Below, piece by piece: positions 47,430-54,716 of a stretch of 64,000 bases of DNA (position 1 is the first letter of the stretch; every line of letters starts with the position of its first letter). The notes beneath the pieces were generated by a model. That model did not search any database. It had not been told where the DNA came from and saw only the letters and a program-made list of their open reading frames with translations. Location of the stretch: assembly GCF_003991155.1 (NCBI RefSeq), contig NZ_CP031293.1, one strand, 5' to 3'. Position numbers and translations under genes: made by a program. The stretch is from Escherichia coli (GTDB taxonomy: Bacteria > Pseudomonadota > Gammaproteobacteria > Enterobacterales > Enterobacteriaceae).

Positions 47430-48914
47430 ATGCGAAAAATAATTACTCATTTCAAAGTTGTTTTAACGTTACTTCTACCAGTAACCGTATCTGCCCAGCA
47501 GATACAGTGGCAATCCTGTATGGCCAGTCAATTCAACCACTGGTTTGGTGAGGAAAAACCGTCTCCTGACTTACTATGTGGTTATTTGTCTGTTCCATTA
47601 AAATATACAGACACAGGCGGAGATGCTTCTTATGAAAAAAAATCACAAGTCAAACTAGCGTTGACAAAATTGCCGGCAAAAAGCAAGCATAAAGGAAGTA
47701 TCCTGATAATAAGTGGTGGTCCCGGGTTACCAGGCATAAATCCTTATATTAACTTTGACTGGCCAGTCACAAATCTTCGTGAGTCATGGGATATTATTGG
47801 ATTTGATCCTCGAGGCGTCGGACAGTCCACTCCGACAATAAACTGCCGGCAATCAGATACAGAGACTCAGGAAAACATAACCGAAAAGCAACAAGTATTA
47901 AATAAAATTAATGCCTGTATCCATAATACCGGAGCCGAAGTCATTCGCCATATCGGCTCTAACGAGGCTGTATACGATATTGATCGTATTAGGCAAGCCT
48001 TGGGGGATAAACAACTGACAGCCGTGGCGTATTCGTATGGAACTCAAATTGCAGCCTTATATGCAGAACGTTTTCCCTACAACGTAAGATCTATCGTTCT
48101 TGATGGAGTCGTCGATATCGATGACCTGGAGGACAACTTCACATGGCAACTCAAACAGGCACAGAGTTATCAGGAAACGTTTGATCGCTTTGCATCCTGG
48201 TGTGCGCGTACAAAAAGTTGCCCGCTTTCTTCAGACAGAGATAAGGCAATAACTCAGTTCCATGAGCTATTATCAAAATTACATCACAAACCTTTATTAG
48301 ACAGTAAGGGAGAAAATATATCTTCAGATGAACTCATATCATTAACAACAGACCTTCTGCTATGGCGTTCATCATGGCCAACCCTTGCAACTGCCATACG
48401 CCAGTTCTCTCAGGGGATTGTCAGTAATGAAATTGAAACTGCGCTCAGTGCTCCGATAGCCTCAGAAGAGTCAAGCGATGCTTCGGGGGTAATCCTCTGT
48501 GTAGATCAGGGGGATGAGCAATTAACACCAGAAGAGCGAAAATCCCGAAAAGACGCTCTTGCGAATGCCTTCCCGGCTATTAACTTTGACAATGGACGTT
48601 CCGATTCACCTGATTTTTGTGAATTATGGCCAATACATAGCGACCTGAACAAAACTCGCCTGAAAAATACTGTTCTGCCCTCTGGTTTACTGTTTGTAGC
48701 ACACAAATACGACCCAACAACGCCCTGGATTAATGCCCGTAAGATGGCAGAGAAATTTTCCAGCCCGTTACTAACAATAAATGGTGATGGGCATACATTA
48801 GCTCTCACCGGAGTTAATTTATGTGTAGATAAAGCAGTTGTACATCACCTGATCACTCCACAAAAAATAGAAAATATATACTGCCCAGGAAATTCTGAAG
48901 CAGAAATACAATAA
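47430..48914 (+). CDS. Putative secreted alpha/beta-hydrolase, S33 / TAP-like peptidase family
   Basis: 494-aa ORF with signal peptide (MRKIITHFKVVLTLLLPVTVSA), nucleophile-elbow-like YSYGT and a TAP-type C-terminal region (KYDPTTPW); occupies the K-12 appY position. Confidence 0.7.
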   Translation: MRKIITHFKVVLTLLLPVTVSAQQIQWQSCMASQFNHWFGEEKPSPDLLCGYLSVPLKYTDTGGDASYEKKSQVKLALTKLPAKSKHKGSILIISGGPGLPGINPYINFDWPVTNLRESWDIIGFDPRGVGQSTPTINCRQSDTETQENITEKQQVLNKINACIHNTGAEVIRHIGSNEAVYDIDRIRQALGDKQLTAVAYSYGTQIAALYAERFPYNVRSIVLDGVVDIDDLEDNFTWQLKQAQSYQETFDRFASWCARTKSCPLSSDRDKAITQFHELLSKLHHKPLLDSKGENISSDELISLTTDLLLWRSSWPTLATAIRQFSQGIVSNEIETALSAPIASEESSDASGVILCVDQGDEQLTPEERKSRKDALANAFPAINFDNGRSDSPDFCELWPIHSDLNKTRLKNTVLPSGLLFVAHKYDPTTPWINARKMAEKFSSPLLTINGDGHTLALTGVNLCVDKAVVHHLITPQKIENIYCPGNSEAEIQ

Positions 48915-48969: not shown

Positions 48970-49177
48970 ATATTCATATTTTTGTTATTCTTGTATGAAA
49001 TCGTCTCATGTACACGGTCCTTTTTTCGCCGAAAACTGATATTACTTTAATCAAAAGTTGACGTGCCAGATTCGAAGTAAATTTATAAAATATCAAATCA
49101 ATATACATTTTGCACCTTCGAGATAGTAATTGCTGTTACTGTAACATGAGTTACAAACAGCTTCATACCCAGAGCTA

Positions 49178-49396
49178 CTGATGTATCAACACGATTCAAC
49201 AATACCCGATATTTATTCCATGCCTCCAGCAACGATCTTTCTTCCTCCGTTGCGATTTCCCAGCATCCTGCAGTGGCGCAATATACTCACTGAATTCCTG
49301 GATGTAGAACTGTGTGGTGACGGTCTTCCAGCCATTCGGCTCCTGCTGTATCGAAGCATACCAGGCTATTTCAATATCGCTATGCTGCGGCAGCAT
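49178..49396 (-). pseudogene. Tail fibre assembly gene remnant (tfaX-like), frameshifted
   Basis: EYIAPLQDA matches the lambda Tfa C-terminal region as recalled; the rest of the Tfa C-terminus ([27 protein letters not shown]) is in another frame. Confidence 0.6.
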
Positions 49397-49452
49397 TTAA
49401 CCCCTTGTAATTCATCGCCATAATTGATTTAATTCACAAATAAAACTATAAC

Positions 49453-50121
49453 ATGGTGAAATTAATGAAAAAAAACACAGATGATGGGGCTAAAATTTAC
49501 ACACCACTTACCCTAAAGCTTTATGACTGGTGGGTTTTGGGAGTATCAAATCGGCTTGCATGGGGATGTCCTACAAAGGAACACCTTCTTCCACACTTTC
49601 TGGAACATTTAGGTAACAACCATCTGGATATTGGTGTTGGAACTGGGTTTTACCTTACTCACGTACCTGAGAGCAGTCTGATATCTTTAATGGATTTGAA
49701 CGAAGCTAGCCTGAACGCGGCATCTACAAGGGCTGGGGAATCAAAAATTAAACATAAAATTAGCCATGATGTTTTTGAACCTTATCCCGCGGCGTTACAT
49801 GGTCAATTTGATTCCATTTCCATGTTTTACCTTCTTCACTGCCTGCCTGGAAATATATCTACAAAAAGCTGTGTAATACGCAATGCGGCGCAGGCCTTAA
49901 CTGACGATGGAACTCTATACGGAGCCACAATTCTTGGCGATGGAGTTGTGCACAATAGCTTCGGTCAAAAACTGATGCGCATTTACAATCAGAAAGGCAT
50001 CTTTTCAAACACAAAAGATTCCGAAGAAGGCTTAACACATATACTCTCAGAGCATTTCGAGAATGTTAAAACCAAGGTTCAAGGTACTGTAGTAATGTTT
50101 TCCGCTTCAGGGAAAAAATAG
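49453..50121 (+). CDS. Class I SAM-dependent methyltransferase (ybcY-like prophage cargo), apparently intact
   Basis: 222-aa ORF with SAM motif I (LDIGVGTGF); sits between tfa remnants as ybcY does in K-12 DLP12. Confidence 0.75.
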   Translation: MVKLMKKNTDDGAKIYTPLTLKLYDWWVLGVSNRLAWGCPTKEHLLPHFLEHLGNNHLDIGVGTGFYLTHVPESSLISLMDLNEASLNAASTRAGESKIKHKISHDVFEPYPAALHGQFDSISMFYLLHCLPGNISTKSCVIRNAAQALTDDGTLYGATILGDGVVHNSFGQKLMRIYNQKGIFSNTKDSEEGLTHILSEHFENVKTKVQGTVVMFSASGKK

Positions 50122-50175
50122 CATCCAACCGCAGCACGTTCTTGCTTAAGACGTGCTGCGGCATAATCCCAATGA

Positions 50176-50300
50176 TTACTCCCTGACAGGGTTCGTAGGC
50201 CACTCAATATCAGGTGCAGTTGATGTATCAACACGGTTCAGCAACACCCGATACTTCTTCCAGGCTTCCAGCAACGAGGTTTCTTCCTCCGTTGCATATA
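50176..50300 (-). pseudogene. Tail fibre assembly gene 3' remnant (tfaD-like)
   Basis: Translates to [33 protein letters not shown] (Tfa C-terminus) with stops immediately upstream in frame. Confidence 0.6.
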
Positions 50301-50313
50301 CAGCTCACTTTTT

Positions 50314-50607
50314 TCACCCACGATTAACCAACAGCCAGACCAGCAGACACGCCACCACCGGCACAGCAAAATCCATCAGACTTGCTACATCCCACGCGCG
50401 CGGATCAAAACCGCCCCACCACGGCATATTCATTCGCTTGCCATGCCCGAACATTTCAATCCAGCGATATTCTGCCTGGGTGTGTTCACGCGCAATGAAG
50501 AACGTACAACCGGCTATCGCCCCGTAAACCCAGTTTCCGGTAAAAAGACCAATCAGTACCTGCGCAGCCACAGCACAAAGCGCATGAAGAAAAGGTGTTA
50601 TATCCAT
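50314..50607 (-). CDS. Hypothetical small membrane protein (97 aa), prophage tail-fibre region
   Basis: Track ORF with two or three hydrophobic helices, tightly packed after the 234-aa gene; no family recognised. Confidence 0.5.
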   Translation of the reverse strand: MDITPFLHALCAVAAQVLIGLFTGNWVYGAIAGCTFFIAREHTQAEYRWIEMFGHGKRMNMPWWGGFDPRAWDVASLMDFAVPVVACLLVWLLVNRG

Positions 50608-50617
50608 TACTCCTCCT

Positions 50618-51322
50618 TTATCTAATATCGCTTCGGGAAGTTAATAACAACTTTAATTCTGACTCAAGTTCATCAACTCTTTCAGTCAGTTTCTGGATAT
50701 GGTGAATCAGTGGAACAACCAGACGTTCGTACATTACACCTTCGGCAACAAGGCCATTGCTGGAAATAGCTTCAGGAGCATCATCTTCGTTAGCTGGTCG
50801 CCAGTGTACAAACTGAGGAGCAATTTCTCCTACTTCCTCGGCAATCAATCCGTAGAATCCCCAGTCACGCCTGTCATTTTCGCATTGCGACCTGTACCAC
50901 ACAGGGCGCATCCTGAAAATGAGATCGGCGTGCTCTGAATCTATTGTCTCTACTGAATGTTTATAGCGGATAGACGATGTTGACCGCAGCACAGACGAAA
51001 TTGCAGGGTCAGGATTAAGATAAAGGTTTGCCGCCGCTGTAGTCGTGGCCAAATTCCATAAATAAAACGCTTCACGACCTGTCAGTGGATAAAAATCTCC
51101 GCCATAACGACCACTTTCCAGATCGTTCACTTCCACTTTGTTTTTCAGCTTATTATCAACTTCAGTTTTTGTGTATCTGGAGCTGATATCCTGCTTTGCA
51201 CTGGTCATCTCAGTCTGAAGCGTTGATACTTTTCTGCTAATTGATGAAATATCTTCCTTAGCTTTACTGACATCTCCCTTTAGCTTGGTGATATCTCCTG
51301 GAATTACTGTCGATGTAGCCAT
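50618..51322 (-). CDS. Hypothetical fibre-like protein with a C-terminal S74-type intramolecular chaperone-like domain
   Basis: 234-aa ORF; motif SSIRYK then MRPVWYRS and GLIAEEVGEIAPQFV resembles the self-cleaving chaperone domain of phage fibres and spikes. Confidence 0.55.
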   Translation of the reverse strand: MATSTVIPGDITKLKGDVSKAKEDISSISRKVSTLQTEMTSAKQDISSRYTKTEVDNKLKNKVEVNDLESGRYGGDFYPLTGREAFYLWNLATTTAAANLYLNPDPAISSVLRSTSSIRYKHSVETIDSEHADLIFRMRPVWYRSQCENDRRDWGFYGLIAEEVGEIAPQFVHWRPANEDDAPEAISSNGLVAEGVMYERLVVPLIHHIQKLTERVDELESELKLLLTSRSDIR

Positions 51323-51331
51323 TTTTCTGCC

Positions 51332-51613
51332 TCACATCCAGCCACGAAGTTGATGCTCAACAACAACCGCGTATTTATCGAATATTGACGATTTTTTTGC
51401 ATCATTAATGATGCGCACGTTTACAAAATATCCATCTTCCTTAACACATACCGGTTCGCCATCTTCAGTCAGCTCTCCGGTTTCTTTGTACACGTTACCT
51501 ATCACGTCAATAAGAATATCATCCTGCATCGACTCGTCATCATAATAACCAGCACTCTCCATAAAGGTCGAAAAGTCGGCCCTGTCGGCAAATTTGAGTG
51601 TTAAATCTTTCAT
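51332..51613 (-). CDS. Hypothetical small acidic protein (93 aa), coupled to stf
   Basis: Start codon overlaps the stf stop at 51613; Asp/Glu-rich; no family recognised. Confidence 0.5.
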   Translation of the reverse strand: MKDLTLKFADRADFSTFMESAGYYDDESMQDDILIDVIGNVYKETGELTEDGEPVCVKEDGYFVNVRIINDAKKSSIFDKYAVVVEHQLRGWM

Positions 51614-53985
51614 TAGATTGACTCCCCCACCTGAGCATCAGTCAATGCCTTGTGCCATATTCTGAAATTCCTGACATGACCAAATAAATGACGTAACCCG
51701 GCTGTAGTCTGGCCTCCAATACGGATAATTGCGGTGTTCTGAATATAGGACCATGTGGTTTTTGTTTCGCTGGATATACGCCCGTTACTTACTGAGCACG
51801 TAGACTGATCTGACTTTACACGCATCCCCATAACCATTTTTTCAAGCAATGCGTTTTCGTTTACCCGTCTGTTAGCTCCTCCAATATCGCAATAAGGAAA
51901 TCCGTCGTAATCTGTTGAATGACCGAAGCCAAGAATAATAGCCGCTCCGGTTTGATGACCGCCGGTATCAAAAACACGCGGTGCTGCATTTGGCGTTTTA
52001 TACCAGTTCTTATGTACCTCACAAAGAACCGTAAAAGGAAGATTATAAAGGTTATTCTTGATTGGGACTGTCACCATATCGCTTGCGCGGGTCGCTGCCG
52101 TCGTTTCTGATATAATAAAAGATGATGCGCAAGGGCCATTTTCAACCTGAGGGGTGGACAGGAAAATATAATCTCCCGATTCAACGACACCACCTTCTTT
52201 TGGTGCGTATTGTATTGCCGAGGTTATGCAGGACTCGTCAATTGCCTGAATCGTTGCCTCTGCAAAAATCCAGCCCGTAACCTCATCCTTGTTAACTCGA
52301 GCAGTGAGCCTGTCGGCAGCTACACCGGTGATTTCAACCGATAAAGACCGCGTATTAACAATGGCATATCCAAGATTAGATGAAGCGCTGCCATCGAAGG
52401 CTTCAAACCTGATCCTTAACCGGAGTTCCAAATCCGTTTTAAATCTGCACGATGTCGTCACACACTTATTATCGCCTGATACATCGACAGCCCCGGTTAC
52501 TGTAACTGACGCCATGTTAACAGGAGAGGTTTTCCCAATCAGAGAATCGTTACAGACAAATTTTCCATAAGTAAAACCAAAACTATCCGTCCCGGTTTCG
52601 GGCACATCCATATTTACCGACTTGCCCCAACTGGCAGGGGTTTCCGAATTGAGCATGTAGTTCGTTCTCTGACCCTCAATAAGCAGGCCATCACGTTCAA
52701 ATCGTGGCTCGTCAATGGCAGCCTCTGTCAGCACACCAGATTTATTAATATAGGTTGCTTTCGATGCGCGTTTAAACTTTACAACCTTATCGCCAGGCAT
52801 CGTTATTTCATCATCACCAATAACAATCTTTTTATATGATGGCGAAAACCCCGTAATCATATCCAGTGAATCGTTAAACGGTATCCACACATCAGGCAGT
52901 GGCTGTAAGACATATTTATACGGCTCTGCTGCCTGACTTGCATACTCTCTGGCTGCGTCTTCACTTGCTTTTGCAGCGGTCTGGCTTGCAGCGGATGCTT
53001 TCGCCGAGTTCGCCGCTGCAGTCTCGCTTGTCTTTGCATTGGTTTCACTGGTTTTTGCTGCTTTTTGACTGTTGGCTGATGCAGTGGCAGAAGCAGCCGC
53101 CGCACTTGCAGAACCAGCTGCGGCACTCTCGCTTTGGGCTGCTGCATCCTGACTGTTTTTCGCCGCAGTTTCGCTGGCTTTAGCATTCGTTTCGCTGGTC
53201 TTCGCTGCCGTCTGGCTGGACTTTGCGTTGGTTTCGCTCGTCTTCGCTGCTTTCTGACTGTTAGCCGCAGCAGTTGCTGATCCAGCTGCTGAAGTCGCAG
53301 AACCGGCTGCTGCGCTCTCGCTTTCAGCTGCTGCAGCCTGGCTGTTTTTCGCCGCAGTTTCACTGGCTTTAGCATTCGTTTCGCTGGTCTTCGCTGCCGT
53401 CTGGCTTGACTTTGCGTTGGTTTCGCTCGTCTTTGCTGCTGTCTCGCTATTTTTCGCGTTGGTTTCTGATTTTTTGGCTGCTGTCGCGGAATTTGCCGAT
53501 GCAGTCTGTGAGGTCGCTGCCGCCTGTGCGCTGTTAGCTGCATTCGTTTCTGAGGTTTTCGCCGCGTTCTTCGATGATGCCGCTGCAGTTTCGGATTTCT
53601 TTGCCGCCGCTGCGCTCTGAGAGGCGGCTTCGGCGTTGCGTGCCACTTCTTCCACCATTGCCTCAAAACGACGCAATGCCTCCGGCATGACATCATCTTC
53701 CGTCATGGCACCGAGAAAATCATTCAGCGTACCTGGTCTGGAGCCTTCATAGACGGTAATGGTCCCAGCATGTGAAGGCGGAAAACCTTCAACCAGCAGG
53801 GTGACGCTGTACTGGCCATACTCAACATCCATGCTGTAACGTCCGGCTTCATCCGGATTTTCAGAAGCCACCGTGTTCACCAGTACCGTGGTGCTGTTAC
53901 GCTTTGCCTTCAGTTGAATAGTGCAGTTCTGTATTGGTTTTCCCGCACCATCTTTCAGCACACCTGAGATTTTTACTGCTGCCAT
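51613..53985 (-). CDS. stf: Side tail fibre protein Stf (lambda-like N-terminus, repeat region, distinct distal domain)
   Basis: N-terminus MAAVKISGVLKDGAGKPIQNCTIQLKAKRNSTTV matches lambda Stf as recalled; Ala/Ser/Thr-rich AAKTSETNAK repeats in the middle. Confidence 0.85.
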   Translation of the reverse strand: MAAVKISGVLKDGAGKPIQNCTIQLKAKRNSTTVLVNTVASENPDEAGRYSMDVEYGQYSVTLLVEGFPPSHAGTITVYEGSRPGTLNDFLGAMTEDDVMPEALRRFEAMVEEVARNAEAASQSAAAAKKSETAAASSKNAAKTSETNAANSAQAAATSQTASANSATAAKKSETNAKNSETAAKTSETNAKSSQTAAKTSETNAKASETAAKNSQAAAAESESAAAGSATSAAGSATAAANSQKAAKTSETNAKSSQTAAKTSETNAKASETAAKNSQDAAAQSESAAAGSASAAAASATASANSQKAAKTSETNAKTSETAAANSAKASAASQTAAKASEDAAREYASQAAEPYKYVLQPLPDVWIPFNDSLDMITGFSPSYKKIVIGDDEITMPGDKVVKFKRASKATYINKSGVLTEAAIDEPRFERDGLLIEGQRTNYMLNSETPASWGKSVNMDVPETGTDSFGFTYGKFVCNDSLIGKTSPVNMASVTVTGAVDVSGDNKCVTTSCRFKTDLELRLRIRFEAFDGSASSNLGYAIVNTRSLSVEITGVAADRLTARVNKDEVTGWIFAEATIQAIDESCITSAIQYAPKEGGVVESGDYIFLSTPQVENGPCASSFIISETTAATRASDMVTVPIKNNLYNLPFTVLCEVHKNWYKTPNAAPRVFDTGGHQTGAAIILGFGHSTDYDGFPYCDIGGANRRVNENALLEKMVMGMRVKSDQSTCSVSNGRISSETKTTWSYIQNTAIIRIGGQTTAGLRHLFGHVRNFRIWHKALTDAQVGESI

Positions 53986-54049
53986 ATCCACTCCACAAAA
54001 AAGCCCGCCTGAACCGGCGGGCTGTCATAACACTGTGTTACCTGGCTAA

Positions 54050-54649
54050 TCAGAATTTATAACCGACACCCACGATGAAACCGTCAGTGCGCCAGTCGCC
54101 ACTGCCGGAGCCTTCATAAGCAATATCAATGGCCACGGATTCGGTCGGGTTAAACTGCACGCCAGCTCCCCACGCCAGAGACGTGTTGCTGTGGCGATCG
54201 TCATCACTTCCGGTCAGCACATCGTGCGTTTTCCCCTTGTTGTCAGTTACGCGGAGATAATCCCCGGAGAACGTCGAAACACGGCTGTAAGCCACACCTG
54301 CCATCGCATAAGCACTGAACCATTCATTCACGCGTACAGATGGCCCCGCCATCATGCTGAACCAGCGGTTACGCACTGAATCTTCATGCCAGCGGGTATC
54401 GCTGTAATGCGTTTTTTGCTCATCTTTGGCATTGGCATAACTGAATGACGTCACCAGCCCCAGCGTGTCCGTAAATTCATAACGGTATTTCACGTTAATG
54501 CCCTTCAGGTCATCACTGCCTGGCATATCAGTATGGGTCTGAAGATACCCGGCGCTTAGTGTGGACTGATGCTCTGCTGCGCTCGCTGGCGTACCAGCGG
54601 CAACCAGCCAGACTACTGCGGACAGAATAACAGCACATAATTTACGCAT
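54050..54649 (-). CDS. lom: Lom-family outer membrane protein (Ail/Lom/OmpX family)
   Basis: Track ORF trimmed to MRKLCAVILSAVV; lies between J and stf as in lambda; C-terminal GVGYKF. Confidence 0.88.
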   Translation of the reverse strand: MRKLCAVILSAVVWLVAAGTPASAAEHQSTLSAGYLQTHTDMPGSDDLKGINVKYRYEFTDTLGLVTSFSYANAKDEQKTHYSDTRWHEDSVRNRWFSMMAGPSVRVNEWFSAYAMAGVAYSRVSTFSGDYLRVTDNKGKTHDVLTGSDDDRHSNTSLAWGAGVQFNPTESVAIDIAYEGSGSGDWRTDGFIVGVGYKF

Positions 54650-54716
54650 AATTACCTCTCGCTTTTCTGCAATAAAAAAGGCGTCATTTCTGACGCCCAT
54701 ATTGGGGTTATAAAAT

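Follow-up and report, generated by a model that had tools for sequence, protein, structure and literature searches.

The locus described here raises the question of what the long direct repeats in the middle of a prophage side tail fibre gene encode, and whether they can alter the length of the fibre. It lies within a stretch of 64,000 nucleotides (nt) of an Escherichia coli contig (NZ_CP031293.1, assembly GCF_003991155.1), which is called the window below and to which all positions refer unless another record is named. The repeats very probably encode the coiled-coil shaft of a side tail fibre from a lambda-like prophage, a shaft that differs in length among related phages by whole heptads, i.e., in steps of seven codons (21 nt). 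The gene and its N-terminal domain are as follows:

51613..53985, minus strand: stf-like side tail fibre gene, 790 amino acids (aa), ATG start at 53985 (list of open reading frames (ORFs) and translation)
53590..53979, minus strand: PF08400 (phage_tail_N) N-terminal domain, residues 5-134, Pfam E-value 5.4e-67

The gene had been taken for one of the stf type in a preliminary description of this DNA, and the assignment holds. The PF08400 match reaches 224 bits (cutoff 26.6; Pfam), residues 5-97 correspond to the 'Tail fiber protein' of the PDB entries 9e7m/9mgh, i.e., the N domain of the Ur-lambda Stf (E-value 7e-49), and the family phrog_1419 ('tail protein') is matched end to end (profile positions 1-793/793, 1463 bits). 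It has been reported that the first ~93 residues of the PF08400 region form the collar domain, which fixes the fibre to the tail (PMC12617516). Directly upstream, on the same strand, an Ail/Lom gene (54050-54700) and a J-like ORF of 1159 aa (54717-58196) were found, and the same J-lom-stf order appears in the RefSeq annotation of the identical locus. On the grounds of the collar domain, the position after J and lom and the full-length family similarity, the protein belongs to the PF08400-type lambdoid side tail fibres. When called mechanically, the ORF begins with GTG at 53991, two codons upstream of the ATG at 53985, which is likely the true start; the N-terminus of relatives begins with MAAVKISG. 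Genes of this kind are also carried by the sequenced phages 2G7b, HannyBb, Tritos, and PhiR63_1, at 89-91% nt identity.

Directly after the PF08400 domain, the gene enters a repetitive tract, within which a higher-order unit was distinguished:

52948..53640, minus strand: heptad tract, 693 nt, 33 uninterrupted 21-nt units
53242..53430, minus strand: higher-order unit 1, 189 nt, 9 heptads (TSETNAK SSQTAAK TSETNAK ASETAAK NSQAAAA ESESAAA GSATSAA GSATAAA NSQKAAK)
53053..53241, minus strand: higher-order unit 2, 189 nt, 164/189 identical to unit 1
53011..53052, minus strand: partial third unit (TSETNAK TSETAAA), which runs on into the diverged end of the tract

Direct repeats at the DNA level had been claimed for the centre of stf, and self-comparison of the region 52950-53620 confirmed them: all strong self-match offsets are multiples of 21 nt, and at an offset of 189 the identity amounts to 68.5%, whereas a control piece from this gene gives 32% or less. 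The Tandem Repeats Finder reports positions 53014-53444 with a period of 189, 2.3 copies, 85% matches, no indels and a score of 638, as well as nested periods of 21 and 42 nt inside the tract. The longest exact direct repeat has 44 nt (mean 10.4 and maximum 15 in 200 shuffles), and the identity of the 189-nt order, 67.1%, is higher than in all 2000 permutations of the heptad order (maximum 60.9%). Some details of the preliminary description had to be adjusted. The repeats do lie in the region given there, 52950-53520, but the tract reaches 53640; the term 'near-identical' suits each unit over its first ~105 nt (53140-53244 versus 53329-53433, 101/105 identical), but not the whole units, which are only 87% identical. 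Moreover, the example pair 53160-53250/53340-53430 shows 31% ungapped identity as written, as it is 9 nt out of register; the correct partner of 53160-53250 is 53349-53439 (+189 nt), with 97% identity.

The likeness of units 1 and 2 is far above chance and above the demand of a common protein sequence. At the 57 residues that are identical between them, 41 codons are also identical, where 21.5 would be expected from the codon usage of the tract, and none of 20000 simulations reached 41. This excess comes entirely from the first 35 codons (30/34 versus 13.2 expected; for the last 28 codons, 11/23 versus 8.3), which indicates a recent duplication or conversion of the unit's 5' part and a greater age of the remainder. 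Read in gene orientation, the two units show only two differences in their first ~88 nt, both of them synonymous. The DNA is hierarchical, with a 21-nt unit, 42-nt units and a 189-nt unit present twice and, in part, a third time; both full units were homogenised or duplicated lately over their first ~105 nt, synonymous sites included, and the rest of the unit is older.

In the stf frame, the tract consists of 33 uninterrupted heptads with the consensus x-S-(E/Q/A)-T-A-A-K; of 34 units, 32 have Ser at heptad position 2 and 31 have Ala at position 6. Among its 231 residues there are 85 Ala, 43 Ser, 28 Thr, and 23 Lys, and the decapeptide AAKTSETNAK, named earlier as typical of the Ala/Ser/Thr-rich blocks encoded by the repeats, indeed occurs in it five times. 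The seven-residue periodicity, the small Ala/Ser core positions and the location directly after PF08400 are all features of the PCoil domain of the EPclA-D proteins (Ghosh et al. 2012, PMC3368898). In the Ur-lambda phage, analyzed by cryo-electron microscopy and tomography (cryo-EM/ET), residues 102-393 of Stf, which come after the collar and a flexible linker, are described as a trimeric 'proximal coiled-coil domain'; the proximal ~120 residues (collar domains, linkers, and trimeric bundle) were resolved and the rest was represented by a segmented AlphaFold3 (AF3) model fitted to the cryo-ET density (PMC12617516). An AlphaFold2 (AF2) model of a single chain, used here for secondary structure only, places helices at residues 4-136 and 145-265 of a 276-residue fragment (254/276 residues helical, mean predicted local distance difference test score (pLDDT) 80.9), so that an alpha-helical conformation of the tract is predicted; circular dichroism was measured experimentally on a relative (PMC3368898). 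Based on homology, prediction and the literature, the tract is predicted to be a coiled-coil shaft that is alpha-helical and trimeric. In the whole fibre, the N-terminal collar (PF08400) would dock on the tail, the 33 heptads, with their small Ala/Ser core, would form a parallel trimeric alpha-helical rod, and the C-terminal tip would bind the receptor.

The only break in the AF2 helix falls at the Gly-containing heptads, giving a helical hairpin, which was rejected as a fold and treated as a single-chain artefact; a fold-back artefact in full-length AF3 models has also been reported by the authors of the Ur-lambda study (PMC12617516). The tract is not a collagen-like Gly-X-Y repeat (3 Gly among 231 residues, a period of 7 and not 3), PDB sequence matches to the C-terminal heptads of RNA polymerase II RPB1 and to ribosomal P2 were considered chance hits caused by low complexity (E-values 0.01-0.5), and NCBIfam matches to DNA polymerase III tau and to an NlpC/P60 protein (20 bits versus cutoffs of 517-1260) were regarded as low-complexity noise.

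A tract of this type is not peculiar to the window. In 150 representatives of the family, PF08400 is almost universally followed by A/S-rich heptads that form a tract of variable length, and the allele of the window stands at the long end; these lengths were used qualitatively, as the strict heptad walk halts at the first deviating heptad and underestimates them. In close relatives, whose stems (the N-terminal domain and the tract) are otherwise 93-100% identical, the following numbers of heptads were observed:

24 heptads: phage IdasGreatGrand; E. coli AVS0655, MSB1_4I, and CB209
29 heptads: E. coli EFF60
32 heptads: E. coli 203740 and about six further genomes that share its 820-nt span
33 heptads: the window; phages 2G7b and PhiR49_1
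42 heptads: GCA_016595135.1 (L002); protein clusters P0001-P0003

The stem DNA spans among these alleles are 652, 757, 820, and 841 nt. All the ORFs are intact and all the differences are multiples of 21 nt, which means that both the reading frame and the heptad register are kept; expressed in protein, the alleles differ by multiples of seven residues, as was published for the PCoil domains (PMC3368898). The preliminary suggestion that such repeats can expand or contract by recombination is supported by this natural range of 24-42 heptads and by the duplicated and chimeric units found at the junctions. In the 42-heptad allele, the extra 189-nt unit is identical to its neighbour at 187/189 positions, and from the two mismatches the crossover can be mapped to the near-identical 5' part of the unit. 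IdasGreatGrand has one unit, a chimera of ~105 nt resembling block 1 followed by sequence resembling block 2, while in AVS0655 and MSB1_4I the switch from block 1 to block 2 occurs earlier, and all three have different tips; the different junctions and tips among the 24-heptad alleles point to at least two independent deletions. Smaller changes were found to be flanked by short direct repeats, i.e., an 84-nt deletion by the exact 9-nt repeat AACAGCCAG and a 21-nt deletion by the repeat GC(A/G)GCAGCC, matching at 8/9 positions. Because the 189-nt units are direct repeats, whole units would be gained and lost by unequal homologous recombination, and the 21- or 84-nt losses may have arisen through slippage or deletion between the 8-9-nt direct repeats.

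At ~0.148 nm per residue, one heptad would correspond to ~1 nm and one 189-nt unit to ~9.3 nm of rod, and the shafts would measure ~25 nm (24 heptads), 34 nm (33 heptads, as in the window) and 44 nm (42 heptads). A physical change of fibre length is what we infer from this coiled-coil geometry. One and the same tip was seen with 29, 33, and 42 heptads, and since the 42-heptad allele and the 33-heptad phage 2G7b have tips of 100% identity, length assorts independently of the tip.

As repeat arrays are prone to misassembly, the copy number in the window might be an artefact, with the array collapsed or expanded. Exact runs of 44 nt and units of 189 nt can mislead short-read assemblers, and the 42-heptad allele was found only in draft assemblies or protein clusters. 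On the other hand, the window matches a finished chromosome, that of E. coli 2016C-3878, with 100% identity, and there the prophage abuts ompT-envY-nfrA; of 5426 complete E. coli genomes, ~1000 have the identical 841-nt stem without an indel (at least 80% coverage), and the exact 790-aa protein occurs on 407 public contigs. In addition, typical reads exceed the 189 nt of a unit, 25 positions distinguish the two units, and the 33- and 24-heptad forms are both found in isolated, sequenced phages. An assembly artefact is, in consequence, extremely improbable.

The same alleles might suggest a contingency (hypervariable) locus that switches or rapidly tunes adsorption, as several lengths occur on near-identical stems and at least two 189-nt deletions were independent. 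Against this, in an evenly spaced sample of E. coli genomes each of the 23 records with a full tract has exactly the 33-heptad length, and only three of the 120 best protein clusters are longer. Among the best 40 complete E. coli genome records, where variants of lower identity could sit further down the ranking, no 42-heptad allele was found with a real three-unit query, all the hits being two-unit alleles aligned in two pieces. Furthermore, the units (21 and 189 nt) are imperfect and not the short perfect repeats of a contingency locus, and all the changes are in frame, so no on/off switching would result. With the 33-heptad form dominant, the locus is not hypervariable, and rapid switching is very unlikely. 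A related idea, that the heptad number is an adaptively tuned spacer, in which the ~25, 34, and 44 nm alleles match the reach of the tip to the thickness of O-antigen or capsule, seems doubtful. The occurrence of the same tip with 29, 33, and 42 heptads and the origin of 24-heptad stems at least twice are relevant to it, and, if it were true, the 189-nt architecture would be kept because the reach changes in one recombination step; nevertheless, the strong dominance of one length means that the data do not support it.

Several points weigh against the interpretation of the repeats as a shaft of recombining length. The AF2 monomer is modelled with a fold-back at the Gly-containing heptads; the trimeric structure is drawn from relatives and a single-chain prediction; an Ala/Ser core is unusual for a coiled coil; and the coiled-coil assignment of the lambda region comes mostly from the fitted AF3 model, the resolved part of Stf being the proximal ~120 residues. 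The recombination pathway, be it RecA, a phage recombinase or replication slippage, is suggested by junction sequences as its sole basis. Finally, length variants are rare (0/23 in the even sample), and a functional tuning of length is therefore hypothetical.

Downstream of the tract, the gene encodes the putative receptor-binding tip:

51616..52926, minus strand: C-terminal receptor-binding part, residues 368-788, phrog_5939
~52084-52683, minus strand: 'GTA/phage head spike fiber' domain, residues 435-634, NCBIfam NF048003, E-value 7e-13

This tip was found in 220 phage records at 35-86% aa identity, including T5-like and other virulent phages, and its spread among unrelated phages marks it as a widely exchanged module. 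Unrelated virulent phages have it (H211-H233) in their lateral or side tail fibres, among them T5-like phages of ~108 kb, siphophages of ~50-60 kb (e.g., vB_EcoS_ESCO3 and VogelGryff) and myophages of ~136 kb, and it also occurs in records labelled 'Campylobacter phage C13/C15', which look like a host mislabel or a contaminant. A variable patch of the tip (~52095-52635; gene nt ~1350-1890) shows 56-87% nt identity to the closest relatives, 2G7b, L002, and L008 (EFF60), with flanks of at least 93%, and may be the surface that contacts the receptor.

Among relatives sharing the stem, the tips are only 40-65% identical at the nt level, and this invites another reading, namely that the repeats serve mainly as a conserved homology linker for the exchange of tips between co-resident prophages and not to set the length of the shaft. 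The N-terminal domain and the tract remain 93-100% identical where the tips differ so strongly, the stem occurs in 2442 genomes and this particular tip in only about 550, the number of copies per genome has a median of 2 and reaches 13, and the lambda-type fibre diverges inside the tract. Most relatives, however, have their breakpoint outside the tract, 100-250 nt downstream of it; any conserved stem, repetitive or not, could act as a homology arm; and the strict heptad pattern is left unexplained. As the main role of the repeats, such a linker is conceivable but rather unlikely, and it is compatible with a coiled-coil shaft and not an alternative to it.

Neither a lambda-type distal part nor tfa directly downstream was found, and for this reason the tip cannot be considered an orthologue of that of lambda Stf, while the membership of the protein in the PF08400 family is kept. 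Downstream of stf, instead of a Tfa protein, there are:

51332-51613, minus strand: ORF of 93 aa, phrog_1361, with no assigned function
50618-51322, minus strand: protein of 234 aa with a Peptidase_S74 intramolecular-chaperone domain
50314-50607, minus strand: ORF of 97 aa, phrog_1443

The S74-domain protein has 346 aa in 2G7b and L002, so the version in the window is short. Further downstream, at the end of the prophage by ompT-envY-nfrA (~49098-50300; L001 9486-10683), two tail-fibre-assembly pseudogene fragments, the only tfa sequences there, and a DinI fragment are located, which are remnants of earlier prophage ends; they flank genes of a class I S-adenosylmethionine-dependent methyltransferase (49453-50121) and an alpha/beta hydrolase (47430-48914). 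A tRNA search of the whole window revealed no tRNA genes. As for mobile elements near stf, the insertion sequence IS1 interrupts the gene in strain THO-008 (H3, NZ_AP022536.1), IS200C lies between lom and stf in EFF60 (L008 1337-1795), and a resolvase/invertase (Pin-like) gene is situated downstream of the fibre cluster in L002 (7460-8050), the window being without such a gene.

The preliminary description had also held that the repeats produce spurious long ORFs in other frames, and three of these were identified:

52857..53696, minus strand: +1-frame ORF (frame offset 1) through the tract, 279 aa, rich in R/Q/K/P
52899..53183, plus strand: antisense ORF across the tract, 94 aa
53417..53620, plus strand: antisense ORF across the tract, 67 aa

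The longest of them might be regarded as a real overlapping gene, since it spans 279 codons, is open in all the relatives examined and has been annotated as a coding sequence (CDS) in NZ_CP029747.1 and several other genomes. Yet the frame stayed open at the same length in 1000 of 1000 reshuffles that kept the Stf protein and its codon usage, so selection is not needed to explain it, and its length follows the copy number of the tract in relatives. Its low-complexity product has no family match in PHROGs or NCBIfam, the exact 109-aa product of this frame is missing from a collection of 15 billion proteins, and all the recognisable domains are in the stf frame. With its restricted codon set, the tract cannot make stop codons in the +1 frame, hence the long ORF, which is a pure artefact of composition; a functional gene here has almost no likelihood. 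The antisense open stretches likewise fall inside the range of synonymous reshuffles.

These ORFs have affected the annotation of the locus. In RefSeq, the stretch 52857-53186 is named 'phage tail protein' (WP_371834555.1), and the intact stf is split into two pseudogene fragments. The split made by the Prokaryotic Genome Annotation Pipeline (PGAP) of RefSeq (window 51613-53991; L001 12001-14373; L008 1916-4123) gives an N-terminal pseudogene with a 'missing C-terminus' and a C-terminal fragment named either 'hypothetical protein, missing N-terminus' or 'phage head spike fiber domain-containing protein'. The same split is seen in EFF60, whose ORF is intact, as well as in several further genomes; off-frame CDSs named 'phage tail protein' are WP_371834555.1 and WP_416373222.1, in EFF60 there is also an antisense 'hypothetical protein', and 73 contigs carry C-terminal fragments of 415 aa from the same protein cluster. 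The most useful by-product of this study is a warning to annotators that an intact stf has repeatedly been split and part of a compositional +1-frame ORF named 'phage tail protein'.

The scientific value of the case is small and its practical value modest. It shows a tail fibre shaft built from a hierarchical DNA repeat with natural alleles that vary by whole heptads, and the series of 24, 29, 32, 33, and 42 heptads is ready for tests of fibre reach and adsorption or for the engineering of fibre length.

Comparison with known systems places the tract as follows. Short stretches of the same motif type are present in the N-terminal triple-helical bundles of other fibres and depolymerases of phages, i.e., in DpK2 of Klebsiella phage RAD2 (7lzj), in 7vz3/7vyv and in T5 pb1 (8hqz_d), but the likeness is weak (E-value about 1e-3) and of low complexity, and the anchoring domains and tips differ; in DpK2, an extended N-terminal triple helical bundle is visible in the cryo-EM density, without an atomic model. 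The Stf of lambda is a trimer, present as four fibres per virion, which speeds adsorption (PMC12617516). The fibre of the window resembles it in the homologous collar, in the order of collar, linker, and coiled coil, and in the position of its gene after J and lom; however, only the first ~9-12 heptads are alignable, no gp37-like lambda type was recognised in the distal part, and the downstream genes are not tfa. The closest parallel is the PCoil of EPclA-D, which has the same place directly after PF08400 (PfN) and the same low-complexity Ala/Ser period of seven residues. Compared with it, the tract described here is much longer (33 heptads) and very regular, with a 189-nt higher-order repeat, and it is followed by a globular spike-fibre tip, whereas a collagen triple helix follows in EPclA-D. 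Several other PF08400 fibres (P0185, P0213, P0215, P0226, P0230, and P0231) carry collagen-like Gly-X-Y after only two or three heptads, matching the EPcl proteins. The feature is thus the already known PCoil, or proximal coiled-coil, shaft of a PF08400-type fibre, for which length variation in multiples of heptads has been published, and the only increment provided here is the explicit allelic series of 189-nt units with its junctions.

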